From Eledone cirrhosa (taxonomy: Eukaryota), in assembly GCA_964016885.1 (NCBI GenBank), contig OZ024741.1, positions 339,574,001 to 339,638,000 on the forward strand: DNA of 64,000 nt, in the 5' to 3' direction. Positions 1-59,100 of the stretch are shown in pieces. Each line of letters begins with the position of its first letter. Within the stretch, counting starts at the first letter, position 1. The translations under genes were made by a program, and so were the position numbers. Under the pieces are notes generated by a model, which saw nothing but the letters and a program-made list of their open reading frames with translations, was not told the DNA's origin and did not search any database.

Positions 1-2204
1 ATCCTCGCCCCCCTTGTCACCACCCTCCCCTCCCACATCTCCGACACCAACCACGCCCTGCGCCTTTTCGACTCCTTCACCTACCCACCCGGCCCACAGC
101 CCTTCCGCTTCACCCTAGACATCAAGTCCTTCTATACCGTCATCCCCCACGCCGACGGCCTACGCGCCCTCAAACACTACCTCGACCTTCGCCCCTCCCC
201 CATTCCCTCCACCCCACCCTTCTTCGCCTTGCCGAGCTGGTCCTCACCCTCAATTGTTTCTCCTTCTCGGGTGAGTTTTATCAACAGGTCACGGGGGTAG
301 CCATGGGTACAAGAATGGGCCCGAACTATGCCAACCTTTTTGTTGGCCATGTTGAGGCCCAAATCTTTGCCCAGTACACCGGCCCCACGCCTGAACTGTA
401 CGGTCGTTACTCTCACCCGCGCCCGTGCTGTCCACCGCTCCACCAACCTCCCCCCACCCCCCACCCCACCGCACCCCTCCACCGCACCCCTCCACCGCAC
501 CATCCGCCACCTCTTCCGACGCCTCCAGTCCGACCCCTCCACCTCCCACATCTTCCCAACCCCACCACTCCCCTCCTTCAAACGCGCACGCAATCTCCGC
601 ACCCTCCTCGTCCACAGCTCCCTACCCCCCAACCCACGCTCTTTTCCCCCCCGGTTCCTTTCCCTGTTCTAGGCCCCGCTGCAACACCTGTCCCCACATC
701 ACCAACACCACCACCTTCCAGGGTCCCAACGGCCACTCTCTCTCTGTCCGGCATGCCTTCCGCTGCACCTCCTCCAACCTAGTCTACGGAATTCGCTGCA
801 CGGAATGCAGCGCGACTTACGTCGGACAGACGGGACGTCGCCTGGCGGACCGATTCACTGAGCACCTCCGGGATATTCGTCTCGGTGGCAGTTCCACCAT
901 CGCCCGCCACTTTGGTGCCCCTGGACATTCCGCACGCCATCTCACAGTCTGTGGCCTACTCCAATGCCACGGAACACCCGCCAATCTCCTCAGAGTTGAA
1001 CAAAGAACCATCTCATCTTACAGACCCACACTCCCCCCAGCCTGAACTCCCCACCCTTATTCATTTAGCCTTCGACCCCCCCCCCCCCACATATACCCCA
1101 CTAACACCACTAACACACCCCTCCTTTTCACCGCCCACCCCACAACTAACAATACTAACACCTCCATTCCACCCCTCATCCGACCACCCTTCCCCAACTA
1201 ACATCCCTCCCTTCTTCTCCTCCCCCTCCTTATCACACGCACAAACTCACCGGCACATATATACACGTGCTCACACTAAACACACACCCTACTACCACCA
1301 CTAACCCTCACCCCCGCACATCCATCCCACCACCCCGCAACTAACATCACTAACAGCCCCCGACCCCAAGCACACGAACACACGCACCCACTTACACCAC
1401 CCACCCCACACGCAACTAACATCACTAACACCCCCCAACCCCACGCACACGTACCCACACACCCTCGGTCACCACCAACTCTACACACCCTACCACCACT
1501 AACCCCCACTCACACCTGCATTCAACCCTTTCTCCACCTCCCGTATACTAACACCCACTAACACCCTTTTCATCAAACTACACACACACCAGTACACCAC
1601 ACTCCCTCCATCGACCCCCACACCCTTCTCTCCCCGCTCCACCCACACCCTTTCTCCACACTCACTCATCCCACTAACACCTCTACTAATACACACACAC
1701 ACCCTCCTCACTCCAACTTTCACACCTACCCATCCTCGCCCCTTTACCATTCCACCCGACTGCTGCTATGCCCTCTGACCACCTCCCAGCACACACAGAC
1801 ACACAGCACTCCTACCGCCTTGACCACTTCCTGTTGCGCGCGCACCCCACATCTCTCCTCTTCCGACCATATCTCCATGGATTACTCGTATGTGGAGCTT
1901 GACCGCGGAATAAACTACCATCCTAGGAGTTTTTACCAACCTTTCAACCACATCCTCTTACGGAATCACCTTTATAACTCACCCACACATACACCCAAAA
2001 CATTTTTTTTCCCACACGCCACCTACACCCACAACACGCTTAAACCCCACACACACGTGCTTTCCACCATATATTTACACCTTCAGCCTCCGGATTCCTC
2101 TCCCCCCACCCTTCTATCCACACACGCACACATACTCCGACCTACACCCCACCCCACACACACCTCTTCCTGAACATGCAACCCCGTTCTTCCCCCAACC
2201 ATTG

Positions 2205-2239
<35 letters not shown>

Positions 2240-2615
2240 ACACCTACACACACACATCACCTTCAGCCCTCCCCGCTCGGGCACCCCGTCTCCCTCTCCC
2301 CACTCCACCCGCCACCACCCCTACACACCCCACACCCTTCCACCACCTGTTTTACCCCATTTTAATTTAATTTTATTTTGATCATGCTTATATTTTTAAT
2401 TTCATTCGCACCGTTTCCTCCCACCCCCTTTTCGCTATATGTCTCTCCACCACTCCCCTACACGCCCTTTGAACTCTCTTCCCACACACTTTTCACCTGA
2501 AGAAGGGCTTATGCCCGAAACGTCGTTCCCCACCACCACCCCACTCTCCATTTCGTGAAATTAATAAACATTCGTTGTACTGCCTCTCTGTTTTGTTCCT
2601 GTTCAAATTTTCCAT

Positions 2616-2620
<5 letters not shown>
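1..2620 (+). mobile_element. Decayed Penelope-like retroelement (RT + GIY-YIG endonuclease) with C-rich 3' region and terminal hammerhead
   Basis: Frame-hopping translation gives PLE RT motifs (FTLDIKSFYTVIPH; GVAMGTRMGPNYANLF; ELYGRY, followed by a deletion that removes the [Y]IDD catalytic motif) and a CCHH/GIY-YIG region (CSRPRCNTC...NLVYGIRC...YVGQTGRRLADRFTEH, 425-1045). Ends in (TA)n at about 2616. Confidence 0.9.
2494..2527 (+). ncRNA. Minimal type I hammerhead ribozyme motif (PLE-associated)
   Basis: CTGAAGA(2497-2503)-A-GGGC ttat GCCC-GAAA-CG-TC; palindromic ACGT stem III; stem I is weak in this copy. Confidence 0.75.
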
Positions 2621-7468: not shown

Positions 7469-7539
7469 GTGTATATATATATATATATACACACACTCAT
7501 ACGTGCATACATGCAACATGAATAGTTATATCAACTTAC

Positions 7540-9954
7540 GTTTTGCCTTGACGGTATTGCTGTCTGGATATGTAACGGTGAGATACAGTCATCACTCTCT
7601 GATTCACCTTCCTCCTGTACATCAATACAAGAGTCAGCAAGCTGCACATTCCAGGTAGTGTTCTTGTCATTGGTTAGCTCGGGTAATCTTATGTCGACCT
7701 GTGATACGGCTGTCAGAGGCAAGCATTTCAAACGTTTCCCTTCTCGGCGTCTGTTTCCCACATCTACGTTACTAGCACGTGAACGTCTTCTCCGGTCCTC
7801 TCTAGATATCAGACATATTGTGGCCGATACCACGACACAAACTGAACCAATCACAGCGACAATCACTATAACGACTAATAGATTTTTATGAATTTTAATA
7901 TTTGCGCCGATTTGAACTGCTGTTAATGTTTTAGATGTGGCATTATTGAACGGTAATACCAATGAAAGGTTTGTCACTGTATGTAATACAGGGCTGCCGC
8001 CGTCTTTGACTTTTATCTGTAGACTATGTGTCCTGGCATCATTTTCTAAAGGAACGCGACTAAACGTTAATTGGCCATTGTAACGATTTAGTAAGAATAA
8101 CTTGCCTTCATTTCCTTGAATTATTTCATACGTTAGAAAGGCGTTCTTTCCAATGTCTTTGTCTGTGGCCATGAGAATAGTGATGTTTCTATCATTCTGT
8201 GCTCGATAATAGGTATTCATGAAGAAGGGGTTAACACTTGGGAAGGTAAAATAAGGAGCATTGTCATTTTCATCCATGATTTCAATGGTGACACTAACTG
8301 TATTATTTAGCGAAGGTACTCCAAGGTCCTTGACAAAAACTCGCAAATGATAAATATCTTGTTGTTCACGGTCTAGTGATAACCTTGTAGATATGTACCC
8401 ATAACTAGTGATCTGGAAAGGCGAGAATGTTCCATTGAGATTCAACAGAGAATAAGAAAGTCTACCTCCAGCTCTCATGTCTGGATCTGAAGCATTAACA
8501 AAACCAACAGGAAAGTTACTGTTCTGGTTTTCATAGGTCCAAAATCTAAAAGATTTTCTGGAAAATCTTGGAGGTACATCGTTGACGTCTATTACACGTA
8601 TGAAAAATTTAGTCTTGGACCACAAAGGCGGCGAACCTCTGTCCTTGCAAGCTACTGTGACGTTATAGCTATCCTTTGTTTCACGGTCGAGTGGGTTTTT
8701 AATAATAATTTTGTATTTTTTCTTACCGTGATTCTGCAAATGGAAGCTGTTGTGACGAAGTGTACAAACTACTTCTCCGTTTAACCCACTATCGGTGTCT
8801 GTCACTTCAACATAACCAATGAAGTTCCCCACCTTGATAGCTTCTGAAATAGCTGCTATATTATAAGCTGCTGTAGAACCTCTTAAGGTAACCAATATTT
8901 TGGGGTAGTGATTCTCAGTGTTTACAATCTTAACCAAGACATCAGCAAATGAACTGCGGGGAGGGTGACCACCGTCGACTGCTTGCACGAATAATTTAAA
9001 GTAAATGTTTTTATTTGGTACCAGTTTCTTTATAAGGTAAATAATTCCGGTTGTTTTATTTAGACTGAAATAGTCTCTTGTCAGATTTGAAGTCTGTGTA
9101 GTAAAATAATATGTAAGCTGAGCATTTTCACCAATATCGGCATCAGAAGCTAATAGTCTGACGATAAATTCTCCAGGTAATACAACTTTGTTGATTAGAA
9201 CATTATAAGCATCTGGTTGGAATATTGGAGTATTATCATTTTCATCTGTAACTGTTATTTGGACATGAAGAAACGTACGTTTCGGGGGTTTTCCTCCATC
9301 TTCAGCAACAACCTTAAGATAATATGTATCTTTGGTTTCCCTATCGAGTTTCACTTCGACAACGATATTTATCACAGAAATTCCATTTACGGTATTTACC
9401 ACAGAGAGAGAGAAATGTTTATCTGCATTATTGTGTAAATAATAAGTAATATTTGAGTTTAAAGCACCAATGTCCCTGTCGATGGCATTGGGAATGGAGT
9501 GGTGAGTTCCTTTTCGATCTCCTTCAGAAAAATTGAGGTATATTTTTTCGCGAATAAATTCAGGCCTACAGTCATTGATGTCTAGTACTATGACTTTTAC
9601 CTTCAATATGTCCATAAATAACTGACCATTCTTGATAGCTATGTTGACTGTTAAGAAACATTCTGTGTTCTGTTCACACAATGCTTCAGAGTCTATGGTT
9701 TGGCTGGTAAAAAGTTTTCCAGTAAACTCTGTTACATTAAGCAATGATGTATTTTCGTCTGTTTCTACATCTTCTAGCAAACTGAATCGAATCTGGATCC
9801 TATCCTTTACGGATAGCTTTGCAAAAATGTGTGAGTCCTTAGCGATATCTCCTAAATGTGTACCCGGGGGTTTACCTTCTTCAACCGAGTAAACAAGGTC
9901 CACACATGTGCAACTTTGAATCACATAAAAGAAAAGAGACATTTTAAACAGCAT
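7540..9954 (-). CDS. Protocadherin, large coding exon (signal peptide, 6 cadherin repeats, TM, start of cytoplasmic tail)
   Basis: ORF 7531-10149 with DINDCRP, LDRE, DENDNTP, DADIGENA, DVNDVPP and DENDNAP motifs; TM LLVVIVIVAVIGSVCVVVSATICLI; likely start MLFKMSLFFYVIQSCTC (ATG 9954; upstream ATGs possible). Splice donor AAC|GTAAGT at 7540/7539; polypyrimidine-CAG acceptor puts the exon start at 10225. Confidence 0.93.
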
Positions 9955-10274
9955 TTTGTTCGTCTGTATCAGAGCAACAAAATGTCGCAGAAATGCCCTA
10001 CAGATGTTTATCCAGGTCATAAAAACTGTATAACGTACTATTGTCTGACATAGGTGTGGACAGATGACAACTGTTTCGCATTCTTCTGGTCTCATCATAG
10101 CTGCAATGACATATCGTGCGAACATCCCGCATAGATTCGGCTTCATCATAGCTATGACGTGTCGTTCTACTTACATCTAATCGCATCATATGGAAGACAT
10201 GTCGTAACATAGTCATATATTACACCTGGAACTGGAAGGAAAGGAAAGAAATAGAATGAATATAAGTAAATTGA

Positions 10275-34288: not shown

Positions 34289-35046
34289 ATGAATGTACCA
34301 CATTTGCCCGCCTTTACTGGAAAACCTAAGATGTGGTTTGCCCAGTTACAGGCGTATTTTACGGTCTGTAAGACCGAATCTGACCAGCGCCTCGCTGTAC
34401 TGATTAGCGGCCTTCCCCCTAATCTAGCAGATTCGGTCCAAGACCTAATTACAGACCCCCCCCCTCTGACTTGACGTATGAGTTTTTGAAGGGCGAGATT
34501 TTGAGGAGGAATTGTAAGTCGGTAGAGAGTCGTTTTCGGTCACTGATCGAGGACGAACGATTAGGTGACAGGACCCCTACCGCTTTTCTCCGGCATTTGC
34601 GGGATTTGAGCGATTCCCAAGATCAGGATAGCCCTTTCCTGAAGCAATTGTTCTTCTCTCGCCTACCTCAAGAGGTACAGGCGATCCTAGCCCATATGCT
34701 AGAGGTGAATACCCTGGATCACATTGCTGTCTCTGCTGACAAAATTGTAGAGGTGACGAAGTACGTTGCTTCCTCTTCTCTTCCTCAATCACGCTCATCA
34801 GCGTCTGATGACAAATTAATCACCACTATGGAAGCCATGACTCGTCAAATGGCGGAGTTGTGCACGGAATTCAGGTCCTTTGGACGGCAGAGGAGCCGCT
34901 CACGACGTTATTCAACTTCTCGCCACCGTAGCCCTTCCAACACACCAGGAACAACATATTGTTATTACCATGAAAGATATGGTAAAAAAGCCGCCCGTTG
35001 TAGGCCTCCTTGTGCTTACGAGGGAAAAGACGACCAGAGTCACTAA
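34289..35046 (+). CDS. Gypsy gag (frameshift in C9 tract at about 34456-34464)
   Basis: LPAF...PKMWFAQL...[13 protein letters not shown]...[18 protein letters not shown] split over two frames. Confidence 0.8.
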
Positions 35047-38000
35047 CGGCGGATAGTGCGCTCTGCGAAACAACATCTAACCGCCACTTTTTCATTGAGG
35101 ACCTGCTGTCAGGTAGAGCTTTTCTGGTTGACACAGGTGCAGCTTGTTCCGTATGGCCTGTGTGTTGTATGAAGGAGCCTCCCCCTGAGACGCCTATTGA
35201 GTTGCAGGCAGTAAATTGTTCGCCGATTCGAACTTTCGGACAAATCTCGTTACCTTTGCAGTTTCGTAATCTGCGGCGCGAGTTTAAATGGATATTTACT
35301 GTCGCTGCCTTGCCGTATCCGATTCTAGGCGCGGATTTTCTCCACCATTTTTCATTGACGGTGGACCTTCGTGGTAAACGCCTAATTGATGGCATCACGG
35401 GATTAACTGTTGTTGGCAAGGCAGCAGGAGTTCCAACGGTTAGCCCGATATTTTTTCTTGCTAACACCGGTGATCCTTTCCATGCGTTGTTGAACTCGTT
35501 CCCGCAACTGACACAGGGGAATTTTCGATTTGATGAACCTACTCATACCACGGAGCACTTCATATCTACAACTGGTGCTCCCGTTTTCTCTCGCCCTCGT
35601 CGCTTGCCTCCGGACAAACTCAAAGCAGCACGATCAGAATTTGATCATATGCTGCAAATGGGGATTATTCGTCCGTCCACGAGCCCGTGGGCGTCCCCAT
35701 TGCACATGGTACCGAAAGCGAATGGCGATTGGAGACCTACTGGAGATTATCGACGCCTGAATTCGATAACGGTACCGGACCGTTATCCTATCCCTCATCT
35801 GCAAGACTTTGCGTCTTCGTTGCAGGGATGCAAGATATTCTCCAAACTGGATTTAATTCGTGCGTACCATCAAATTCCTGTCCATAAAAGTGACATTCGA
35901 AAAACGGCTATAGTTACGCCATTTGGGTCTTTCGAGTTTTTGACTATGCCGTTCGGATTAAGGAATGCCGCTAGTACTTTTCAGCGGTTTATGGATGAGG
36001 TTACTCGCGGCCTCGATTTCGTCTATACCTATATTGACGATCTGCTCATTGCTAGTTCTTCTCCAGAGCAGCATACGTACCATTTGAACCTTCTTTTCCG
36101 CCGATTGAAGGCGTATAACGTGCAGCTTAATGCACCCAAATGTGTTTTTGGTGCTGAGTCACTGACTTTCTTGGGTCACGTCATCGATGCTGACGGAATT
36201 CGACCCCGGCCTGAGCGAGTTAAGGTCATAGAGGATTTGCCTCCACCGACCTCACTACGTCAGTTACGCCAGTTCTTAGGTCTGGTTAACTTTTATAGGC
36301 GTTTCGTGCCAAATTATGCCAAGTTGCTTTTCTCCCTGACAGAAATTTTGAAAAATTGTCGGAGGAAGAACAAAGATATTTCTTTGACAGACACTCAACT
36401 TGCTGATTTTCAGCACGCCAAAACTGTTTTGGCTAATGCTTCGTTACTGACTCACCCGGTACCCGGTGCAAGGCTAACGCTTTGTGTTGATGCATCGGAT
36501 ATCGCTGTGGGCGCAGTACTACAGCAAAACATCAATGGTTACCAGCAACTGCTGGAGTTTTTTTCCAAAAAGCTAAATCCTGCTGAGACGTGCTACAGCA
36601 CCTTTGGAAGAGAGCTTTTAGCCATCTATTTGGCCGTGAAACATTTTTCACATGTGCTAGAGGGTAGACAATTTACTATCCTCACTGACCATAAACCATT
36701 GACTTTTGCTTTGAGAGCAAAGGCTGATAAATACTCGCCCAGAGAGACGAGACACCTTGATTTCATCTCGCAATATACGAGTGATATCCAGCACATTCCG
36801 GGTTCACTAAATACAGCGGCCGATGCTTTGTCCCGCTTACCCGTGACAGCGATCTTGTCACCCTCTGACATAGATCTGACTCGTTTGGCTGCGGATCAGC
36901 CTCCCCTTGAGTCACTGGATGTCACATCGCCCGAGTTTGCGAATTGCGAGATGAAATACTTGCCTCTGTCGACTGCAGTTGGCCAAATTCTCTGCGACGT
37001 CTCTTTGGACGTGCCTAGGCCCTTCGTTCCAGAGAATCATCGTCGGACCGTGTTTCTGGGATTACATTGTATCTCGCATCCAGGATCTTCTGCCACAGCA
37101 AAGCTCATATCAGCTAGATTTTTCTGGCCAAATATGAGGCGTGAAATTGCTGCTTGGTGCCATTCCTGCGTCGCTTGCCAGAGATCAAAGGTCCATCGAC
37201 ACGTCAAGGCTCCCCTGGGTACCTTTGCTAACCCAGATGCGCGTTTTTCGCATATTCATATTGACATAGTGGGACCTTGGCCTGTCAGCGATGGTTTTTC
37301 TTATCTACTTACCGTCATTGACCGTTTTTCGAGATGGCCTGAGGCCATCCCCTTGAAAAACATCACCGCGGAGACAACAGCACGTGCTCTTGTGTCTGGA
37401 TGGATCTCTCGTTATGGAGTTCCATCCACAATAACTACCGACCGTGGACGACAGTTCGAGTCGAGCCTTTTCCTCGAGCTGTCAAAAATAATTGGTGCTA
37501 AACGCATTCGAACTACGGCATACCATCCCGCTTCGAATGGTATGGTGGAGCGTTTTCACCGCCAACTGAAGGCCTCCTTAATGGCCTCAATGGACTCGGC
37601 GCATTGGAGCGAGTACCTCCCTATTGTGCTACTAGGGATTCGGTCAACGGTGAAGGTCGACTTTGGATTTTCACCGGCCGAAGTACTGTACGGTGCCCCT
37701 CTGACGTTGCCCGGGCAAATGCTTGCCCCTATCGATCTTGATGCCCAAGATCACGCTTCCTACGTGTCCCGTTTGCGCTCCTATTTCCAGGATTTGCCGC
37801 CAATGGACACTAGGAAACAAACTGTCAAGACTGCTGTCCCGAGGGATATTGCCTCGTGGACGCATGTCTTTGTAAGGAATGATACGGTGAAGCCCCCGCT
37901 CACACAGCCTTACACTGGACCTTACCGTGTCTTAGCGCGCTCGGCTAAGCATTTCACGTTAGATATTAAGGGGTCCAGGGTGACAGTTACATTAGACAGG

Positions 38001-38294
38001 CTTAAGCAGGCGCACCTTGATACGGACGCTGTGGTTCCTGATCCACGAACCCCTTCGCATTTGCCTGTTGAGCGAACGACTGTTCCTGATCCACCATCAT
38101 CGCCTGTCCCTACACCACCACCATCGCCACGTTACAAGACCACAACCCGTTCAGGTCGTAGGGTCCACTGGCCCAAAAAAACTTTGCAGCACCGTCTATA
38201 TTTAGACTATGTTAGCTGCACCTTTTCTTTGCCTCTGTGTTTCTGCTTTTTCTTTGCCTTGTTTTTTTTTATGCATGCATGTCGTTTTTTTTAA
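35010..38294 (+). CDS. Gypsy pol (protease, RT, RNase H, integrase)
   Basis: LVDTGA, DYRRLN, YIDD, VDASD, TDHKPL, H-x3-H...C-x2-C, IDIVG/TDRG/NGMVER, GPY. It is in the -1 frame to gag, with slippery G GGA AAA at 35022-35028. Confidence 0.95.
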
Positions 38295-40443: not shown

Positions 40444-40547
<104 letters not shown>

Positions 40548-40664
40548 CATATATATGTATACCGGGTTCAACGGGTGAAACCACAGTAAATATGGTACAC
40601 AGTAAATATATAAAAATGTTAAATATAGAAATGGCTTCTAGTGTTTCATTCGAAGTAAATAATG

Positions 40665-41474: not shown

Positions 41475-41552
<78 letters not shown>

Positions 41553-41563
<11 letters not shown>

Positions 41564-44500
41564 AATATAGACATAGAATATTCGAAAATATTCTGTATGT
41601 TTATAATAAACATTTTGAAGACCTAATCGCTATAGAATAGAATACGTCACGTATTACAATTAGATTCTCGATAAAAGCAAGGGAAGTAATCTACGCGTTT
41701 CATTCTTATTAGAAATCTTCAGGACTACATATCCAGTGCTTTTATCGAGAATGACACAGCTAGAGACTTATAGAATACTTAGCTGTGTACAGGAACTGGT
41801 TTGAAAGAGCGGTTGCCGGTCCGGCAGAAATTATAAATTGGAATAAATGCTCTGAAATAGCGATATATATGTGAATATAGACATAGAATATTCGAAAATA
41901 TTCTGTATGTTTATAATAAACATTTTGAAGACCTAATCGCTATAGAATAGAATACGTCACGTATTACAATTAGATTCTCGATAAAAGCAAGGGAAGTAAT
42001 CTACGCGTTTCATTCTTATTAGAAATCTTCAGGACTACATATCCAGTGCTTTTATCGAGAATGACACAGCTAGAGACTTATAGAATACTTAGCTGTGTAC
42101 AGGAACTGGTTTGAAAGAGCGGTTGCCGGTCCGGCAGAAATTATAAATTGGAATAAATGCTCTGAAATAGCGATATATATGTGAATATAGACATAGAATA
42201 TTCGAAAATATTCTGTATGTTTATAATAAACATTTTGAAGACCTAATCGCTATAGAATAGAATACGTCACGTATTACAATTAGATTCTCGATAAAAGCAA
42301 GGGAAGTAATCTACGCGTTTCATTCTTATTAGAAATCTTCAGGACTACATATCCAGTGCTTTTATCGAGAATGACACAGCTAGAGACTTATAGAATACTT
42401 AGCTGTGTACAGGAACTGGTTTGAAAGAGCGGTTGCCGGTCCGGCAGAAATTATAAATTGGAATAAATGCTCTGAAATAGCGATATATATGTGAATATAG
42501 ACATAGAATATTCGAAAATATTCTGTATGTTTATAATAAACATTTTGAAGACCTAATCGCTATAGAATAGAATACGTCACGTATTACAATTAGATTCTCG
42601 ATAAAAGCAAGGGAAGTAATCTACGCGTTTCATTCTTATTAGAAATCTTCAGGACTACATATCCAGTGCTTTTATCGAGAATGACACAGCTAGAGACTTA
42701 TAGAATACTTAGCTGTGTACAGGAACTGGTTTGAAAGAGCGGTTGCCGGTCCGGCAGAAATTATAAATTGGAATAAATGCTCTGAAATAGCGATATATAT
42801 GTGAATATAGACATAGAATATTCGAAAATATTCTGTATGTTTATAATAAACATTTTGAAGACCTAATCGCTATAGAATAGAATACGTCACGTATTACAAT
42901 TAGATTCTCGATAAAAGCAAGGGAAGTAATCTACGCGTTTCATTCTTATTAGAAATCTTCAGGACTACATATCCAGTGCTTTTATCGAGAATGACACAGC
43001 TAGAGACTTATAGAATACTTAGCTGTGTACAGGAACTGGTTTGAAAGAGCGGTTGCCGGTCCGGCAGAAATTATAAATTGGAATAAATGCTCTGAAATAG
43101 CGATATATATGTGAATATAGACATAGAATATTCGAAAATATTCTGTATGTTTATAATAAACATTTTGAAGACCTAATCGCTATAGAATAGAATACGTCAC
43201 GTATTACAATTAGATTCTCGATAAAAGCAAGGGAAGTAATCTACGCGTTTCATTCTTATTAGAAATCTTCAGGACTACATATCCAGTGCTTTTATCGAGA
43301 ATGACACAGCTAGAGACTTATAGAATACTTAGCTGTGTACAGGAACTGGTTTGAAAGAGCGGTTGCCGGTCCGGCAGAAATTATAAATTGGAATAAATGC
43401 TCTGAAATAGCGATATATATGTGAATATAGACATAGAATATTCGAAAATATTCTGTATGTTTATAATAAACATTTTGAAGACCTAATCGCTATAGAATAG
43501 AATACGTCACGTATTACAATTAGATTCTCGATAAAAGCAAGGGAAGTAATCTACGCGTTTCATTCTTATTAGAAATCTTCAGGACTACATATCCAGTGCT
43601 TTTATCGAGAATGACACAGCTAGAGACTTATAGAATACTTAGCTGTGTACAGGAACTGGTTTGAAAGAGCGGTTGCCGGTCCGGCAGAAATTATAAATTG
43701 GAATAAATGCTCTGAAATAGCGATATATATGTGAATATAGACATAGAATATTCGAAAATATTCTGTATGTTTATAATAAACATTTTGAAGACCTAATCGC
43801 TATAGAATAGAATACGTCACGTATTACAATTAGATTCTCGATAAAAGCAAGGGAAGTAATCTACGCGTTTCATTCTTATTAGAAATCTTCAGGACTACAT
43901 ATCCAGTGCTTTTATAAGTCTCTAGCTGTGTCATTCTCGATAAAAGCACTGGATATGTAGTCCTGAAGATTTCTAATAAGAATGAAACGCGTAGATTACT
44001 TCCCTTGCTTTTATCGAGAATCTAATTGTAATACGTGACGTATTCTATTCTATAGCGATTAGGTCTTCAAAATGTTTATTATAAACATACAGAATATTTT
44101 CGAATATTCTATGTCTATATTCACATATATATCGCTATTTCAGAGCATTTATTCCAATTTATAATTTCTGCCGGACCGGCAACCGCTCTTTCAAACCAGT
44201 TCCTGTACACAGCTAAGTATTCTATAAGTCTCTAGCTGTGTCATTCTCGATAAAAGCACTGGATATGTAGTCCTGAAGATTTCTAATAAGAATGAAACGC
44301 GTAGATTACTTCCCTTGCTTTTATCGAGAATCTAATTGTAATACGTGACGTATTCTATTCTATAGCGATTAGGTCTTCAAAATGTTTATTATAAACATAC
44401 AGAATATTTTCGAATATTCTATGTCTATATTCACATATATATCGCTATTTCAGAGCATTTATTCCAATTTATAATTTCTGCCGGACCGGCAACCGCTCTT

Positions 44501-45706
44501 TCAAACCAGTTCCTGTACACAGCTAAGTATTCTATAAGTCTCTAGCTGTGTCATTCTCGATAAAAGCACTGGATATGTAGTCCTGAAGATTTCTAATAAG
44601 AATGAAACGCGTAGATTACTTCCCTTGCTTTTATCGAGAATCTAATTGTAATACGTGACGTATTCTATTCTATAGCGATTAGGTCTTCAAAATGTTTATT
44701 ATAAACATACAGAATATTTTCGAATATTCTATGTCTATATTCACATATATATCGCTATTTCAGAGCATTTATTCCAATTTATAATTTCTGCCGGACCGGC
44801 AACCGCTCTTTCAAACCAGTTCCTGTACACAGCTAAGTATTCTATAAGTCTCTAGCTGTGTCATTCTCGATAAAAGCACTGGATATGTAGTCCTGAAGAT
44901 TTCTAATAAGAATGAAACGCGTAGATTACTTCCCTTGCTTTTATCGAGAATCTAATTGTAATACGTGACGTATTCTATTCTATAGCGATTAGGTCTTCAA
45001 AATGTTTATTATAAACATACAGAATATTTTCGAATATTCTATGTCTATATTCACATATATATCGCTATTTCAGAGCATTTATTCCAATTTATAATTTCTG
45101 CCGGACCGGCAACCGCTCTTTCAAACCAGTTCCTGTACACAGCTAAGTATTCTATAAGTCTCTAGCTGTGTCATTCTCGATAAAAGCACTGGATATGTAG
45201 TCCTGAAGATTTCTAATAAGAATGAAACGCGTAGATTACTTCCCTTGCTTTTATCGAGAATCTAATTGTAATACGTGACGTATTCTATTCTATAGCGATT
45301 AGGTCTTCAAAATGTTTATTATAAACATACAGAATATTTTCGAATATTCTATGTCTATATTCACATATATATCGCTATTTCAGAGCATTTATTCCAATTT
45401 ATAATTTCTGCCGGACCGGCAACCGCTCTTTCAAACCAGTTCCTGTACACAGCTAAGTATTCTATAAGTCTCTAGCTGTGTCATTCTCGATAAAAGCACT
45501 GGATATGTAGTCCTGAAGATTTCTAATAAGAATGAAACGCGTAGATTACTTCCCTTGCTTTTATCGAGAATCTAATTGTAATACGTGACGTATTCTATTC
45601 TATAGCGATTAGGTCTTCAAAATGTTTATTATAAACATACAGAATATTTTCGAATATTCTATGTCTATATTCACATATATATCGCTATTTCAGAGCATTT
45701 ATTCCA

Positions 45707-45708
<2 letters not shown>
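41553..45708. mobile_element. 310-bp hammerhead-containing tandem array (retrozyme-like) with central inversion
   Basis: GTGAATATAG recurs at 41561+310n up to 43731; orientation flips at 43913-43915; about 7.6 + 5.8 units; HHR in every unit; (TA)n flanks. Confidence 0.92.
43933..44021 (+). ncRNA. Representative type I hammerhead of the 310-bp unit (14 copies)
   Basis: GTAGTC-CTGAAGA-T-TTCT aata AGAA-T-GAAA-CGCG-TA-GATTAC (43957-43999). Stem I is extended after an internal loop by a 16-bp helix ATTCTCGATAAAAGCA/TGCTTTTATCGAGAAT. Predicted cleavage after GUA at 43993. Confidence 0.88.
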
Positions 45709-45776
<68 letters not shown>

Positions 45777-46595: not shown

Positions 46596-46777
46596 ATATA
46601 TATATATATATATGTCTGTGAGTGTGTGTATGTATGTATGTATGTCAGGTCGTTCGTCAACGCTACTCGTAACATGTAACCCAGTACAACCTGTGCATGG
46701 TCGGGTCGTCGGCGAATAAACCGGCAACTCCATTAAGCATGCTTCGTAACGAGGGGGATTTTGGACACAGTGCGTTA

Positions 46778-48057
46778 GCTGTGTAATAATACTGTTAACT
46801 GTGTAATAATACTGTTAATTGTGTAATACTATTGTTAATTGTGTAATACTATTGTTAATTGTGTAATAATACTGTTAACTGTGCAATAATACTGTTAACT
46901 GTGTAATAATACTTTTAACTGTGTAATAATACTGTTAGCTGTGTAATAATACTGTTAACTGTGTAATAATACTGTTAATTGTGTAATACTACTGTTAATT
47001 GTGTAATACTATTGTTAATTGTGTAATAATAATGTTAACTGTAATAATACTGTTAGCTGTGTAATAATACTGTTAGATGTGTAATACTACTGTTAACTGT
47101 GTAATAATACTGTTAACTGTGTAATAATACTGTTAGCTGTGTAATACTACTGTTAACTGTGTAATAATACTGTTAACTGTGTAATAATACTGTTAGCTGT
47201 GTAATACTACTGTTAACTGTGTAATAATACTATTAACTGTGTAATAATACTGTTAGCTGTGTAATAATACTGTTAGCTGTGTAATAATACTGTTAACTGT
47301 GTAATAATACTATTAACTGTGTAATAATACTATTAACTGTGTAATACTACTGTTAGCTGTGTAGTAATACTATTAACTGTATAATAATACTATTAACTGT
47401 GTAATAATACTATTAACTGTGTAATAATACTGTTAGCTGTGTAGTAATACTATTAACTGTATAATAATACTGTTAGGTGTGTAATAATACTGTTAGCTGT
47501 GTAGTAATACTATTAATTGTGTAATAATACTGTTAGCTGTGTAATAATACTGTTAACTGTGTAATAATACTATTAACTCTGTAATAATACTATTAACTGT
47601 GTAATAATACTGTTAGCTGTGTAGTAATACTATTAACTGTATAATAATACTATTAACTGTGTAATAATACTATTAACTGTGTAATAATACTATTAACTGT
47701 GTAATAATACTATTAACTGTGTAATAATACTGTTATCTGTGTAGTAATATTAACTGTGTAATAATACTATTAACTGTGTAATAATACTATTAACTGTGTA
47801 GTAATACTATTAACTGTATAATAATACTGTTAGGTGTGTAATAATACTGTTAGCTGTGTAGTAATACTATTAAGTGTGTAATAATACTATTAACTGTGTA
47901 ATAATACTGTTAATTGTGTAATAATACTGTTAGCTGTGTAGTAATACTATTAACTGTGTAATACTACTGTTAGCTGTGTAATAATACTGTTAGCTGTGTA
48001 ATAATACTGTTATCTGGGTAATAATACTGTTAACTGTGTAATAATACTGTTAGCTGT
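46778..48057. repeat. 20-bp minisatellite (TGTGTAATAATACTGTTAAC)n
   Basis: About 64 diverged units. Confidence 0.95.
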
Positions 48058-49667: not shown

Positions 49668-52600
49668 GATAATATGTGCAGGCCTTGATAGTGGTATTTT
49701 CTGTATGATGCGTATATTTGTATGTCCTGGGGTACTCTACATAATATGTGCAGGCCTTGATAGTAGTATTTTCTGTATGATGTGTATATTTGTATGTCCT
49801 GGGGTACTCTACATTAATATGTGCAGGCCTTGATAGTGGTATTTTCTGTATGATGTGTATATTTGTATGTCCTGGGGTACTCTACATTAATATGTGCAGG
49901 CCTTGATAGTGGTATTTTCTGTATGATGTGTATATTTGTATGTCCTGGGGTACTCTACATTAATATGTGCAGGCCTTGATAGTAGTATTTTCTGTATGAT
50001 GCGTATATTTGTATGTCCTGGGGTACTCTACATAATATGTGCAGGCCTTGATAGTAGTATTTTCTGTATGATGTGTATATTTGTATGTCCTGGGGTACTC
50101 TACATTAATATGTGCAGGCCTTGATAGTGGTATTTTCTGTATGATGTGTATATTTGTATGTCCTGGGGTACTCTACATTAATATGTGCAGGCCTTGATAG
50201 TGGTATTTTCTGTATGATGCGTATATTTGTATGTCCTGGGGTACTCTACATAATATGTGCAGGCCTTGATAGTAGTATTTTCTGTATGATGTGTATATTT
50301 GTATGTCCTGGGGTACTCTACATTAATATGTGCAGGCCTTGATAGTGGTATTTTCTGTATGATGTGTATATTTGTATGTCCTGGGGTACTCTACATTAAT
50401 ATGTGCAGGCCTTGATAGTGGTATTTTCTGTATGATGTGTATATTTGTATGTCCTGGGGTACTCTACATTAATATGTGCAGGCCTTGATAGTGGTATTTT
50501 CTGTATGATGCGTATATTTGTATGTCCTGGGGTACTCTACATAATATGTGCAGGCCTTGATAGTAGTATTTTCTGTATGATGTGTATATTTGTATGTCCT
50601 GGGGTACTCTACATTAATATGTGCAGGCCTTGATAGTGGTATTTTCTGTATGATGTGTATATTTGTATGTCCTGGGGTACTCTACATTAATATGTGCAGG
50701 CCTTGATAGTGGTATTTTCTGTATGATGTGTATATTTGTATGTCCTGGGGTACTCTACATTAATATGTGCAGGCCTTGATAGTGGTATTTTCTGTATGAT
50801 GCGTATATTTGTATGTCCTGGGGTACTCTACATAATATGTGCAGGCCTTGATAGTGGTATTTTCTGTATGATGCGTATATTTGTATGTCCTGGGGTACTC
50901 TACATAATATGTGCAGGCCTTGATAGTGGTATTTTCTGTATGATGTGTATATTTGTATGTCCTGGGGTACTCTACATAATATGTGCAGGCCTTGATAGTG
51001 GTATTTTCTGTATGATGTGTATATTTGTATATCCTGGGGTACTCTACATAATATGTGTAGACCTTAATAGTGGTATTTTCTGTATGATGCGTATATTTGT
51101 ATGTCCTGGGGTACTCTACATAATATGTGTAGACCTTAATAGTGGTATTTTCTGTATGATGCGCATATTTGTATGTCCTGGGGTACTCTACATAATATGT
51201 GTAGACCTTAATAGTGGTATTTTCTGTATGATGCGTATATTTGTATGTCCTGGGGTACTCTACATTAATATGTGTAGACCTTAATAGTGGTATTTTCTGT
51301 ATGATGCGCATATTTGTATGTCCTGGGGTACTCTACATAATATGTGTAGACCTTAATAGTGGTATTTTCTGTATGATGTGTATATTTGTATGTCCTGGGG
51401 TACTCTACATAATATGTGTAGACCTTAATAGTGGTATTTTCTGTATGATGCGCATATTTGTATGTCCTGGGGTACTCTACATAATATGTGTAGACCTTAA
51501 TAGTGGTATTTTCTGTATGATGTGTATATTTGTATGTCCTGGGGTACTCTACATAATATGTGCAGGCCTTGATAGTGGTATTTTCTGTATGATGCGTATA
51601 TTTGTATGTCCTGGGGTTCTCTACATTAATATGTGCAGGCCTTGATAGTGGTATTTTCTGTATGATGTGTATATTTGTATATCCTGGGGTACTCTACATA
51701 ATATGTGTAGACCTTAATAGTGGTATTTTCTGTATGATGCGTATATTTGTATGTCCTGGGGTACTCTACATAATATGTGTAGACCTTAATAGTGGTATTT
51801 TCTGTATGATGCGCATATTTGTATGTCCTGGGGTACTCTACATAATATGTGTAGACCTTAATAGTGGTATTTTCTGTATGATGTGTATATTTGTATATCC
51901 TGGGGTACTCTACATAATATGTGCAGGCCTTGATAGTGGTATTTTATGTATGATGTGTATATTTGTATGTCTTGGGGTACTCTACATAATATGTGTAGAC
52001 CTTAATAGTGGTATTTTCTGTATGATGCGCATATTTGTATGTCTTGGGGGTATTCTACATAATATGTGTAGACCTTAATAGTGGTATTTTCTGTATGATG
52101 CGTATATTTGTATGTCCTGGGGTACTCTACATAATATGTGTAGACCTTAATAGTGGTATTTTCTGTATGATGCGTATATTTGTATGTCCTGGGGTACTCT
52201 ACATAATATGTGTAGACCTTAATAGTGGTATTTTCTGTATGATGCGCATATTTGTATGTCTTGGGGGTATTCTACATAATATGTGTAGACCTTAATAGTG
52301 GTATTTTCTGTATGATGCGTATATTTGTATGTCCTGGGGTACTCTACATAATATGTGTAGACCTTAATAGTGGTATTTTCTGTATGATGCGTATATTTGT
52401 ATGTCCTGGGGTACTCTACATAATATGTGTAGACCTTAATAGTGGTATTTTCTGTATGATGCGTATATTTGTATGTCCTGGGGTACTCTACATAATATGT
52501 GCAGGCCTTGATAGTGGTATTTTCTGTATGATGCGTATATTTGTATGTCCTGGGGTACTCTACATAATATGTGCAGGCCTTGATAGTGGTATTTTCTGTA

Positions 52601-52922
52601 TGATGCGTATATTTGTATGTCCTGGGGTACTCTACATAATATGTGTAGACCTTAATAGTGGTATTTTCTGTATGATACGTATATTTGTATGTCCTGGGGT
52701 ACTCTACATAATATGTGTAGACCTTAATAGTGGTATTTTCTGTATGATGCGTATATTTGTATGTCCTGGGGTACTCTACATAATATGTGTAGACCTTAAT
52801 AGTGGTATTTTCTGTATGATGCGTATATTTGTATGTCCTGGGGTACTCTACATATGTGCAGGCCTTGATAGTGGTATTTTCTGTATGATGTGTATATTTG
52901 TATGTCCTGGGGTATTCTACAT
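49668..52922. repeat. 72/73-bp satellite
   Basis: Unit ATAATATGTGCAGGCCTTGATAGTGGTATTTTCTGTATGATGCGTATATTTGTATGTCCTGGGGTACTCTAC, about 45 copies; degenerate units continue to about 53290. Confidence 0.95.
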
Positions 52923-55962: not shown

Positions 55963-56043
55963 GAAGAGAGTCTTGATGTTTCGGACACTAACCTTTCATC
56001 AGAAGAGAGTCTTAATGTTTCGGACACTAGCCCTTCATCAGAG
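55963..56043 (-). ncRNA. Two tandem minimal hammerhead motifs (39-nt period)
   Basis: Minus strand: CTGATGA-A-GGGC tagt GTCC-GAAACATTAAGA...CTGATGA-AAGGT tagt GTCC-GAAACATCAAGA. Confidence 0.65.
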
Positions 56044-56778: not shown

Positions 56779-59100
56779 TATCGTAGACATACTGGGCACA
56801 TTCGAGATTATTATAGATATACTGAGCACATTCGAGAACATCGTAGACATACTGGGAACTTTCGAGATTATTATAGAAATACTGAGCACATTCGAGAACA
56901 TCGTAGTCATACTGGGAACTTTCGAGATTAGTATAGATATACTGGGCACATTCGAGAACATCGTAGACATACTGGGAACTTTCGAGATTATTATAGATAT
57001 ACTGGGCACATTCGAGAACATCGTAGTCATACTGGGAACTTTCGAGATTATTATAGATGTACTGGGCATATTCGAGAACATCGTAATCATACTGGGCACA
57101 TTCGAGATTATTATAGATATACTGGTCATATTCGAGAACATCGTAGACATACTGGGAACTTTCTAGATTATTATAGATATACTGGGCACATTCGAGAACA
57201 TCGTAGACATACTGGGTACATTCGAGATTATTATAGATATACTGGGCACATTCGAGAACATCGTAGACATACTGGGTACATTCGAGATTATTATAGATAT
57301 ACTGGTCACATTCGAGAACATCGTAGTCATACTGGGCACATTCGAGATTATTATAGATATACTGAGCACATTCGAGAACATCGTAGACATACTGGGAACT
57401 TTCGAGATTATTATAGATATACTGGTCACATTCGAGAACATCGTAGACATACTGGGCACATTCGAGATTATTATAGATATACTGAGCACATTCGAGAACA
57501 TCGTAGACATACTGGGAACTTTCGAGATTATTATAGATATACTGGGCACATTCGAGAACATTGTAGACATACTGGGAACTTTCGAGATTATTATAGATAT
57601 ACTGGGCACATTCGAGAACATCGTAGTCATAATGGGCACATTCGAGATTATTATAGATATACTGAGCACATTCGAGAACATCGTAGTCATACTGGGCACA
57701 TTCGAGATTATTATAGATATACTGGGCACATTCGAGAACATCGTAGACATACTGGGAACTTTCGAGATTATTATAGATATACTGGGCACATTCGAGAACA
57801 TCGTAGACATACTGGGTACATTCGAGATTATTATAGATATACTGAGCACATTCGAGAACATCGTAGACATACTGGGCACATTCGAGATTATTATAGATAT
57901 ACTGAGAACATTCGAGAACATCGTAGTCATACTGGGCACATTCGAGATTATTATAGATATACTGAGCACATTCGAGAACATCGTTGACATACTGGGCACA
58001 TTCGAGATTATTATAGATATACTGGGCACATTCGAGAACATCGTAGTCATACTGGGCACATTCGAGATTATTATAGATATACTGAGAACATTCGAGAACA
58101 TCGTAGTCATACTGGGCACATTCGAGATTATTATAGATATACTGGGCACATTCGAGAACATCGTAGACATACTGGGCACATTCGAGATTATTATAGATAT
58201 ACTGAGAACATTCGAGAACATCGTAGTCATACTGGGCACATTCGAGATTATTATAGATATACTGGGCACATTCGAGAACATCGTAGACATACTGGGTACA
58301 TTCGAGATTATTATAGATATACTGAGCACATTCGAGAACATCGTAGTCATACTGGGAACTTTCGAGATTATTATAGATATACTGGGCACATTCGAGAACA
58401 TCGTAGTCATAATGGGCACATTCGAGATTATTATAGATATACTGAGCACATTCGAGAACATCGTAGTCATACTGGGCACATTCGAGATTATTATAGATAT
58501 ACTGGGCACATTCGAGAACATCGTAGACATACTGGGCACATTCGAGATTATTATAGATATACTGAGCACATTCGAGAACATCGTAGTCATACTGGGAACT
58601 TTCGAGATTATTATAGATATACTGGGCACATTCGAGAACATCGTAGTCATACTGGGCACATTCGAGATTATTATAGATATACTGAGCACATTCGAGAACA
58701 TCGTAGACATACTGGGAACTTTCGAGATTATTATAGATATACTGGGCACATTCGAGAACATCGTAGACATACTGGGAACTTTCGAGATTATTATAGATAT
58801 ACTGGGCACATTCGAGAACATCGTAGTCATACTGGGAACTTTCGAGATTATCGTAGACTGACTGGAAACATCCGAGACAATCGTAGATTGATCGGGAACA
58901 CCCGAGACCATCGTAGACAGCATGGGAACATACTGGAACATTGTAGACATATTGGGACCATCTGAGACTATCGTAGACAGCATGGGAGCATACTGGAACA
59001 TTGTAGACATATTGGGATAATCTGAGACTACCGTAGACAGCATGGGAACATACTGGAACCATCGTTAATATATTGGGAACATCCGAGACCATCGTAAACC
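56779..59100. repeat. 60-bp satellite (dimer of 30-bp subunits)
   Basis: About 35 units of ACTGGGCACATTCGAGAACATCGTAGACAT + ACTGGG(A/C)AC(T/A)TTCGAGATTATTATAGATAT, decaying after 58860. Confidence 0.95.

Follow-up and report, generated by a model that had tools for sequence, protein, structure and literature searches.

Introduction

Metazoan retrozymes without long terminal repeats (non-LTR retrozymes), described from coral, mussel and axolotl (PMC7229834; this and the other papers are cited for the portions available), are tandem repeats of 170-400 nt units with low GC content, a type I hammerhead ribozyme, no coding frame and long target duplications, found in genomes that also contain Penelope-like elements; their expression and cleavage have been shown. 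The element analyzed here, a 310-bp hammerhead repeat in a stretch of 64,000 nucleotides from Eledone cirrhosa (assembly GCA_964016885.1, contig OZ024741.1, positions 339,574,001 to 339,638,000; hereafter the window), shares these structural traits. Its weak palindromic stem III resembles that of axolotl HHR_Amex1, and the U-U closure of its stem II that of HHR_Amex2, whereas the two-arm form, fixed ends and microsatellite targeting observed here do not appear in the passages of the same paper in which those elements are described.

Elements of the Hydra and Neptune clades of Penelope-like elements form partial tandems, bear at the 5' end an inverted copy that is itself 5'-truncated, have a 30-40 bp tail at one end, and occupy (TA)n targets (PMC8557442), as does the repeat of the window, which differs from them in that it encodes no protein, repeats the whole unit up to approximately 20 times per arm, and has inversion as the rule, with an inverted arm that is often the longer one. 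Agreement was also found with the Poseidon element of the green anole, which in vitro cuts and extends both strands at AT-rich targets, starts at two adjacent internal sites delimiting the tail and is predicted to be a dimer; Poseidon, however, is autonomous, is copied from a linear template and does not need hammerhead cleavage in vitro, and its later steps are described as unvalidated (PMC11167929). Non-autonomous Chlamys elements such as MRC1 are likewise multicopy, head-to-tail and Penelope-type, but they are algal, generally lack a canonical hammerhead and resemble their partners at the 3' end (PMC8557442). For vertebrates, retrozymes have been proposed to be Penelope derivatives that use Penelope machinery, a proposal shared here; the available part of that study relies on co-occurrence and end-repeat similarity, samples no mollusc, analyzes neither a tail nor inverted arms, and suggests local amplification, which fits the present data poorly (bioRxiv 10.64898/2026.07.22.740005). 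Neither a cephalopod retrozyme nor a two-arm retrozyme insertion was found in the literature searched, which was mostly open access, or in the available portions of PMC4209133 and PMC7761336.

Two questions arise from this literature: the identity of the enzyme that mobilizes animal retrozymes, together with the possible role of circles as its template, and the way in which tandem, inverted and tailed insertions of Penelope-like elements come about. Since the family described below is young, has more than 1,000 legible insertions and coexists with intact candidate helpers, a single 310-nt RNA and a single protein would suffice to test both questions. As a class of element the family is already known, and its value lies in its insertion record and in the directness with which it can be tested. 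The best explanation of the patterns found in the sequence is that a young, protein-free non-LTR retrozyme has probably been copied into (TA)n by a Penelope-type enzyme working from both ends of a break.

Structure of the locus in the window

The array consists of two inverted, outward-facing arms with 13.4 units in total, set inside (TA)n, which is reached at both outer ends (end A on the right and end B on the left; Table 1). The original prediction had described a single tandem array; its 310-bp period (33.5% GC) and its 14 copies were recovered, yet they are divided between the two arms instead of forming one head-to-tail array, with six cores on the forward strand (starting at 43963, 44273, 44583, 44893, 45203 and 45513) and eight on the reverse strand (from 41698-41722 to 43868-43892). 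This two-arm, Penelope-type insertion structure, absent from that prediction, is the most informative feature of the locus. The units had also been described as identical and free of protein-coding frames, and both statements held: no mismatch to the unit was detected over the full length of either arm, and no stop-free stretch of the repeated unit exceeded 59 codons. The target duplication of this locus is unreadable in pure TA. Unit numbering begins with the base that follows the predicted cut (position 1 = 43994). At unit position 168 (44161) the window carries an A that is private among the classed loci, the others having C; A at this position is the letter present at many end-A junctions.

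A genome-wide family of two-arm insertions

The abundance of the family was estimated from exact patterns across the 3.0-Gb assembly, with 0 matches for the controls. The hammerhead core was found 17,252 times and an internal 31-mer of the unit 15,085 times, and junctions with TA numbered 996 for end A and 1,111 for end B; the genome carries at least about 1,000 such insertions. An older subfamily with a 312-bp unit, 95-97% alike, was represented by 1,019 pattern matches. The median locus length was 1.8 kb (82 complete loci), and the pattern of approximately 1,000 or more short loci with fixed ends differs from the few long head-to-tail arrays with undefined ends of a classical satellite. No LTR structure was found in 85 loci analyzed. 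The tandem, low-GC, non-coding 310-bp units, each with a type I hammerhead, together with dispersed copies flanked by target duplications longer than 4 bp, correspond to a non-LTR retrozyme. Most of the roughly 5 Mb (17,252 x 310 bp) of recent sequence that the family adds to the 3-Gb genome takes the form of kilobase palindromes within microsatellites, and read-through of both arms would give self-complementary transcripts.

The 85 loci comprised the window, the best unit matches, 15 loci taken in position order along C1, 20 A-ends for which no exact outward partner had been found and 11 loci from the older-subfamily pattern. Two outward-facing arms were present in 71 of them, a single arm in 11 (some of these cut by the fetched stretch or by a gap) and another arrangement in three, and no inward-facing pair was observed. 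The same trend was seen in the position-ordered sample (12 of 15 two-armed). Among 88 A-ends on C1, an outward exact B-end lay within 20 kb in 54 cases (1.4 expected by chance), an inward one in one case, one on the same strand in one case and none in 32; 17 of the 20 A-ends lacking an outward exact partner were two-armed, with variant B-ends.

The two outer ends were fixed approximately 35 nt apart in the unit. In two-arm loci, the last matching base was 165-167 for end A in 58 of 67 (the split between 165 and 167 reflecting the choice of loci) and 126-139 for end B in 66 of 67, with a mode of 130 and the value 139 reflecting an internal TA run; three more loci had one end elsewhere. Inner ends were scattered over the whole unit, most junctions showing an overlap or a gap of less than 8 nt. 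A readable non-TA target duplication was present in six of the 67 loci (11, 13, 13, 14, 14 and 15 bp). An inverted 5'-truncated copy, a tail of approximately 35 nt (30-40 bp in Penelope-like elements) and a microsatellite target were found together, which is the known footprint of Penelope-like elements on a non-LTR retrozyme. Arm lengths were weakly correlated (rho 0.36, 66 loci), and the B arm was longer than the A arm in 25 of 66 loci; therefore, the B arm is not a fold-back of the A arm, and a simple fold-back of one complementary DNA (cDNA) was ruled out.

Both arms of a locus usually carry the same sequence variant. Thirty haplotypes were distinguished among 74 loci, and the two arms shared theirs in 53 of 58 loci, compared with 10.9% of 3,306 between-locus pairs. 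Minor variants occupied 92 of 196,601 cells in young loci, equivalent to unit-to-unit differences of 0.047%, and 40 of 10,803 cells in 14 loci of the older subfamily, which shows eightfold more decay and the same two-arm form. Because a variant fills every unit, a monomer template would have been copied repeatedly. The retrozyme-like spread by rolling-circle reverse transcription proposed originally is supported by the dispersed copies, the fixed haplotypes, the target duplications and the pairing-preserving variation described in the next section.

Hammerhead motif, folding and conservation

All the elements of the type I hammerhead named in the original prediction were located. A 16-bp helix pairs 43933-43948 with 44006-44021, extending a stem I of 6 bp, including one G-U (43957-43962 with 43994-43999); the core segments lie at 43963-43969 and 43984-43987, stem II with its AAUA loop at 43970-43983, and the ACGCGU palindrome at 43987-43992, followed by a GUA triplet with the predicted cut after 43993. 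The CUGANGA / GAAA / UH core with three stems, stem I open, corresponds to a type I hammerhead, N7 being the core position that varies among copies. The closure of stem II (10.1-11.1), paired in the type I pattern, is a U-U mismatch in the window and in 20 of 25 distinct rows, and A-U or G-U in five.

The predicted fold of the circle (-69.4 kcal/mol) was more stable than those of 100 shuffles (-47.4 ± 4.7 kcal/mol; z -4.7) and contained the hairpins that had been named for the remainder of the unit. In the monomer, the 5' strand of stem II is predicted to pair mostly with the core GAAA (0.82 vs. 0.17), and stem III is negligible, while two ACGCGU palindromes are predicted to pair at -9.5 kcal/mol. 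These predictions fit a monomer circle that would be inactive and cleavage that would take place in multimers; the latter is described in the literature, as far as available, for motifs with a palindromic stem III. Dimer cleavage is plausible, in agreement with both the folding predictions and the literature, and a 310-nt circular RNA would be the predicted product.

The comparison of dispersed copies that had been proposed showed that the helices are conserved, as expected of a ribozyme evolving under selection. Helix changes fixed within a locus kept or created a pair in 11 of 11 cases, compared with three of 21 for sporadic changes (Fisher p 3e-6); among the 11 are a double change replacing G14-C264 with A-U and two that convert the U-U closure of stem II into a pair. 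Helix cells were paired in 96.8% of cases over the 25 distinct rows, and in 38-52% in slid controls.

Candidate helper elements

Two young Penelope-like families with intact frames, one Neptune-like and one Hydra-type, are present in the genome. The Neptune-like family, so labelled from our own reading of a zinc-finger-like linker, had 29,756 first-look candidates, with fetched frames of up to 938 amino acids and ends in TA, and carries a hammerhead whose stem II is unlike that of the retrozyme; it was considered first and is a possible helper, with a less matching stem II. The Hydra-type hammerhead shares the UUUC...GAAU stem II with U-U closure (28,364 matches) and shows two end positions approximately 70 nt apart in (TA)n, often in inverted pairs. 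It leads into a 758-amino-acid frame that was open in eight of eight fetched copies, which had been chosen for that length; the copies are 98-99% alike, bear RWR, DKT and CxCx5C motifs similar to those given for the Hydra clade, end in (TA)n and have inverted 5' arms in three of eight cases. The Hydra-type element, which like the Neptune-like family is counted as active in this genome, is the likeliest candidate helper.

A possibly Naiad-like reverse transcriptase fragment at L049:5100-6185 gave only a weak RVT_1 match.

Proposed mechanism and alternative explanations

The events leading to an insertion may be outlined as follows. Transcription would come first, probably by read-through, because no polymerase III A or B box was found in the unit by simple patterns. 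Tandem transcripts would then self-cleave into 310-nt monomers as double hammerheads formed through the ACGCGU palindrome, a mode proposed because the lone monomer is predicted to be mostly misfolded, and the monomers would be ligated into circles. A protein with GIY-YIG and reverse transcriptase domains, probably dimeric, would nick both strands approximately 11-15 nt apart; two cDNAs would be started on one and the same circle, near unit positions 165 and 130, each running for several rounds, and they would be joined where they stop, often by short microhomology. That a Penelope-type dimer runs two rolling-circle reverse transcriptions in this manner, from both break ends inwards on a single circle, is somewhat favored by the data. 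If true, the insertions themselves would be direct evidence for animal retrozymes moving as circles via Penelope machinery, and one mechanism would explain why Penelope-like elements show tandem, inverted and tail structures, a long-standing puzzle.

Several observations weigh against this account. A Penelope protein used uncleaved RNA in vitro (PMC11167929), and eight of nine frog retrozyme dimers gave no cleavage (bioRxiv 10.64898/2026.07.22.740005). The choice of the 85 loci was non-random. The hammerhead-model search suggested with the original prediction came out negative, Rfam giving no hammerhead match at the gathering score or at E<=10, and the motif call consequently rests on the core pattern and on the variation between copies. 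Regarding the latter, the 11 core positions received 0 of 35 fixed and three of 132 sporadic substitutions, a difference not significant alone; covariation was slight (0.074 vs. 0.068 shuffled, with one pair changed on both sides), and the fixed variants are inherited and are not independent events. Two exceptions were left out of the 11/11 count: 275T>C, which breaks a stem I pair and recurs in three older loci whose units were too few for classing, and a 1-nt C insertion in stem I, fixed in three loci. Outside the hammerhead no significant similarity to the helper ends was detected (13 ends, 200 shuffles), so the pairing with the Hydra-type element is that of a candidate; the Hydra-type tail measures approximately 70 nt and that of the retrozyme 35. 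A resemblance of the retrozyme tail to the helper ends, plausible by eye, was no better than the 200 shuffles for any of the 13.

The haplotype record holds further points of this kind. In L126 (also L248), each arm changes haplotype once two full units have passed, a symmetry for which a linear mosaic precursor is a simpler explanation than a monomer circle; this locus is outside the 69 loci examined for mirrored variants, its end lying beyond the first fetched stretch. L114 is mosaic in one arm only. These switches suggest template switching or a mosaic precursor. In addition, a variant recurs within each of three long arms, at spacings of 7, 7 and 8 units, so that some of the length came from later local duplication or from multimeric templates.

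The strongest alternative, though an unlikely one, keeps the same enzyme and two-end priming, with an uncleaved linear multimer from an existing array as the usual template and with circles being rare or only founding new haplotypes. It would account for the same haplotype order read from both ends in L126, for uncleaved RNA being the main in vitro substrate of the anole element (PMC11167929) and for the predicted misfolding of the lone hammerhead. Only a monomer template, however, fills every unit with a new variant, and 30 haplotypes occur in 74 loci; of 88 minor variants in 69 complete loci, none had a counterpart with the same unit index in the opposite arm, though some may be sequencing errors, and one 20-unit arm does not show any change. 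Copying of monomer circles from both break ends is the preferred reading over a linear template.

Amplification in place, by unequal exchange, of a satellite that a short insertion had seeded, the hammerhead being carried along as a passenger, is considered very improbable. It is the route proposed for vertebrate retrozymes (bioRxiv 10.64898/2026.07.22.740005) and would produce variants repeated at intervals of 7-8 units, but it is at odds with opposite arms sharing haplotypes, with fixed ends, with fixed changes that spare the ribozyme where sporadic ones do not, and with the very low unit-to-unit divergence of young loci; as the main route it is already largely refuted.

Slightly less credible still is mobilization by the enzyme of a long interspersed nuclear element (LINE) or by a DNA rolling-circle enzyme of Helitron type. 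LINE reverse transcriptases are common in this genome, twin priming by LINEs gives 5' inversions, and Helitrons give tandem arrays. In twin priming, synthesis of the first cDNA halts on reaching the second primer, whereas here the arms run past site B many times and their inner ends fall throughout the unit, which ruled out a LINE-style collision at the second primer; furthermore, there is no poly(A) end, the tail-sized offset and TA targeting match Penelope-like elements, and Helitrons are not known to make target duplications. Finally, that the palindromes are long-read or assembly artefacts can practically be dismissed: inverted chimeras are a known read artefact and the window units are 100% identical, but fixed ends, target duplications and distinct junctions occur at many loci, and the older 312-bp subfamily has the same form despite its greater decay.

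Occurrence of the unit in sequencing runs

A search of sequencing runs for the unit listed 20 runs containing it, from 18 organism codes and 17 studies, with no RNA run among those listed; three of the 20 were examined. Run X1 stood out by its very high summed depth and also had loose ends running into TA at both of the element's end positions; it is not independent, because it is possibly the assembled sample. Runs X12 and X20, with a low share of the unit, had one unit-bearing contig each (depth 10 and 17), and a wide horizontal spread of the unit was unsupported; our guess is that its presence under other organism codes reflects low-level carry-over. The raw run X24, from the same study as a fourth listed run, had no unit in 12.8 million reads and was counted as no test.

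Other features of the window

The positions of the features analyzed are listed in Table 1. No hammerhead core was found by pattern scan in the three groups of short-unit tandem arrays. The broken Neptune-like copy at the start of the window belongs to a very abundant young family.

Table 1. Positions of the retrozyme locus, Penelope-type elements and other features (window coordinates unless a locus is named).
Feature	Position	Strand	Description
Left arm	41553..43915	-	7.6 identical 310-bp units, 8 hammerhead cores; outer end is end B
Right arm	43913..45708	+	5.8 identical units with 6 cores, ending outwards at end A (unit position 165)
Inversion junction	43913..43915		TAT common to both arms, 3-nt microhomology
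Left (TA)n target tract	41514..41560		Overlaps end B; unit 130-139 = 41562-41553, limit ambiguous because of TA microhomology
Right (AT)n target tract	45707..45724		Follows end A
Full type I hammerhead domain	43933..44021	+	Core pattern, stems and fold
Monomer, predicted cut to cut	43994..44303	+	Unit 1-310; predicted circular RNA
Tail, approximately 35 nt	45674..45708	+	Unit 131-165, between the two putative reverse transcription start sites; right end only
Hydra-type Penelope family	L240:3626-5899 and L241-L247		Complete hammerhead, 4-bp stem III
Decayed Hydra-type end	40545-40660	-	900 bp left of the retrozyme locus
Broken Neptune-like Penelope copy	1-2616	+	Reverse transcriptase fragment, GIY-YIG match 395-1045, minimal hammerhead 2497-2520, (TA)n end
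Two tandem minimal hammerhead cores, Penelope type	55979-56041	-	39 bp apart
879-amino-acid frame with cadherin repeats, protocadherin-like	7531-10170	-	Two nearest matches are mollusc clusters
Two long reverse transcriptase frames of LINE type and a pol frame of an LTR retrotransposon	13181-16651, 20870-25201, 35004-38294	-, +, +	
Tandem arrays	46774-48057, 49669-52922, 56780-59096		20-, 72- and 30/60-bp units

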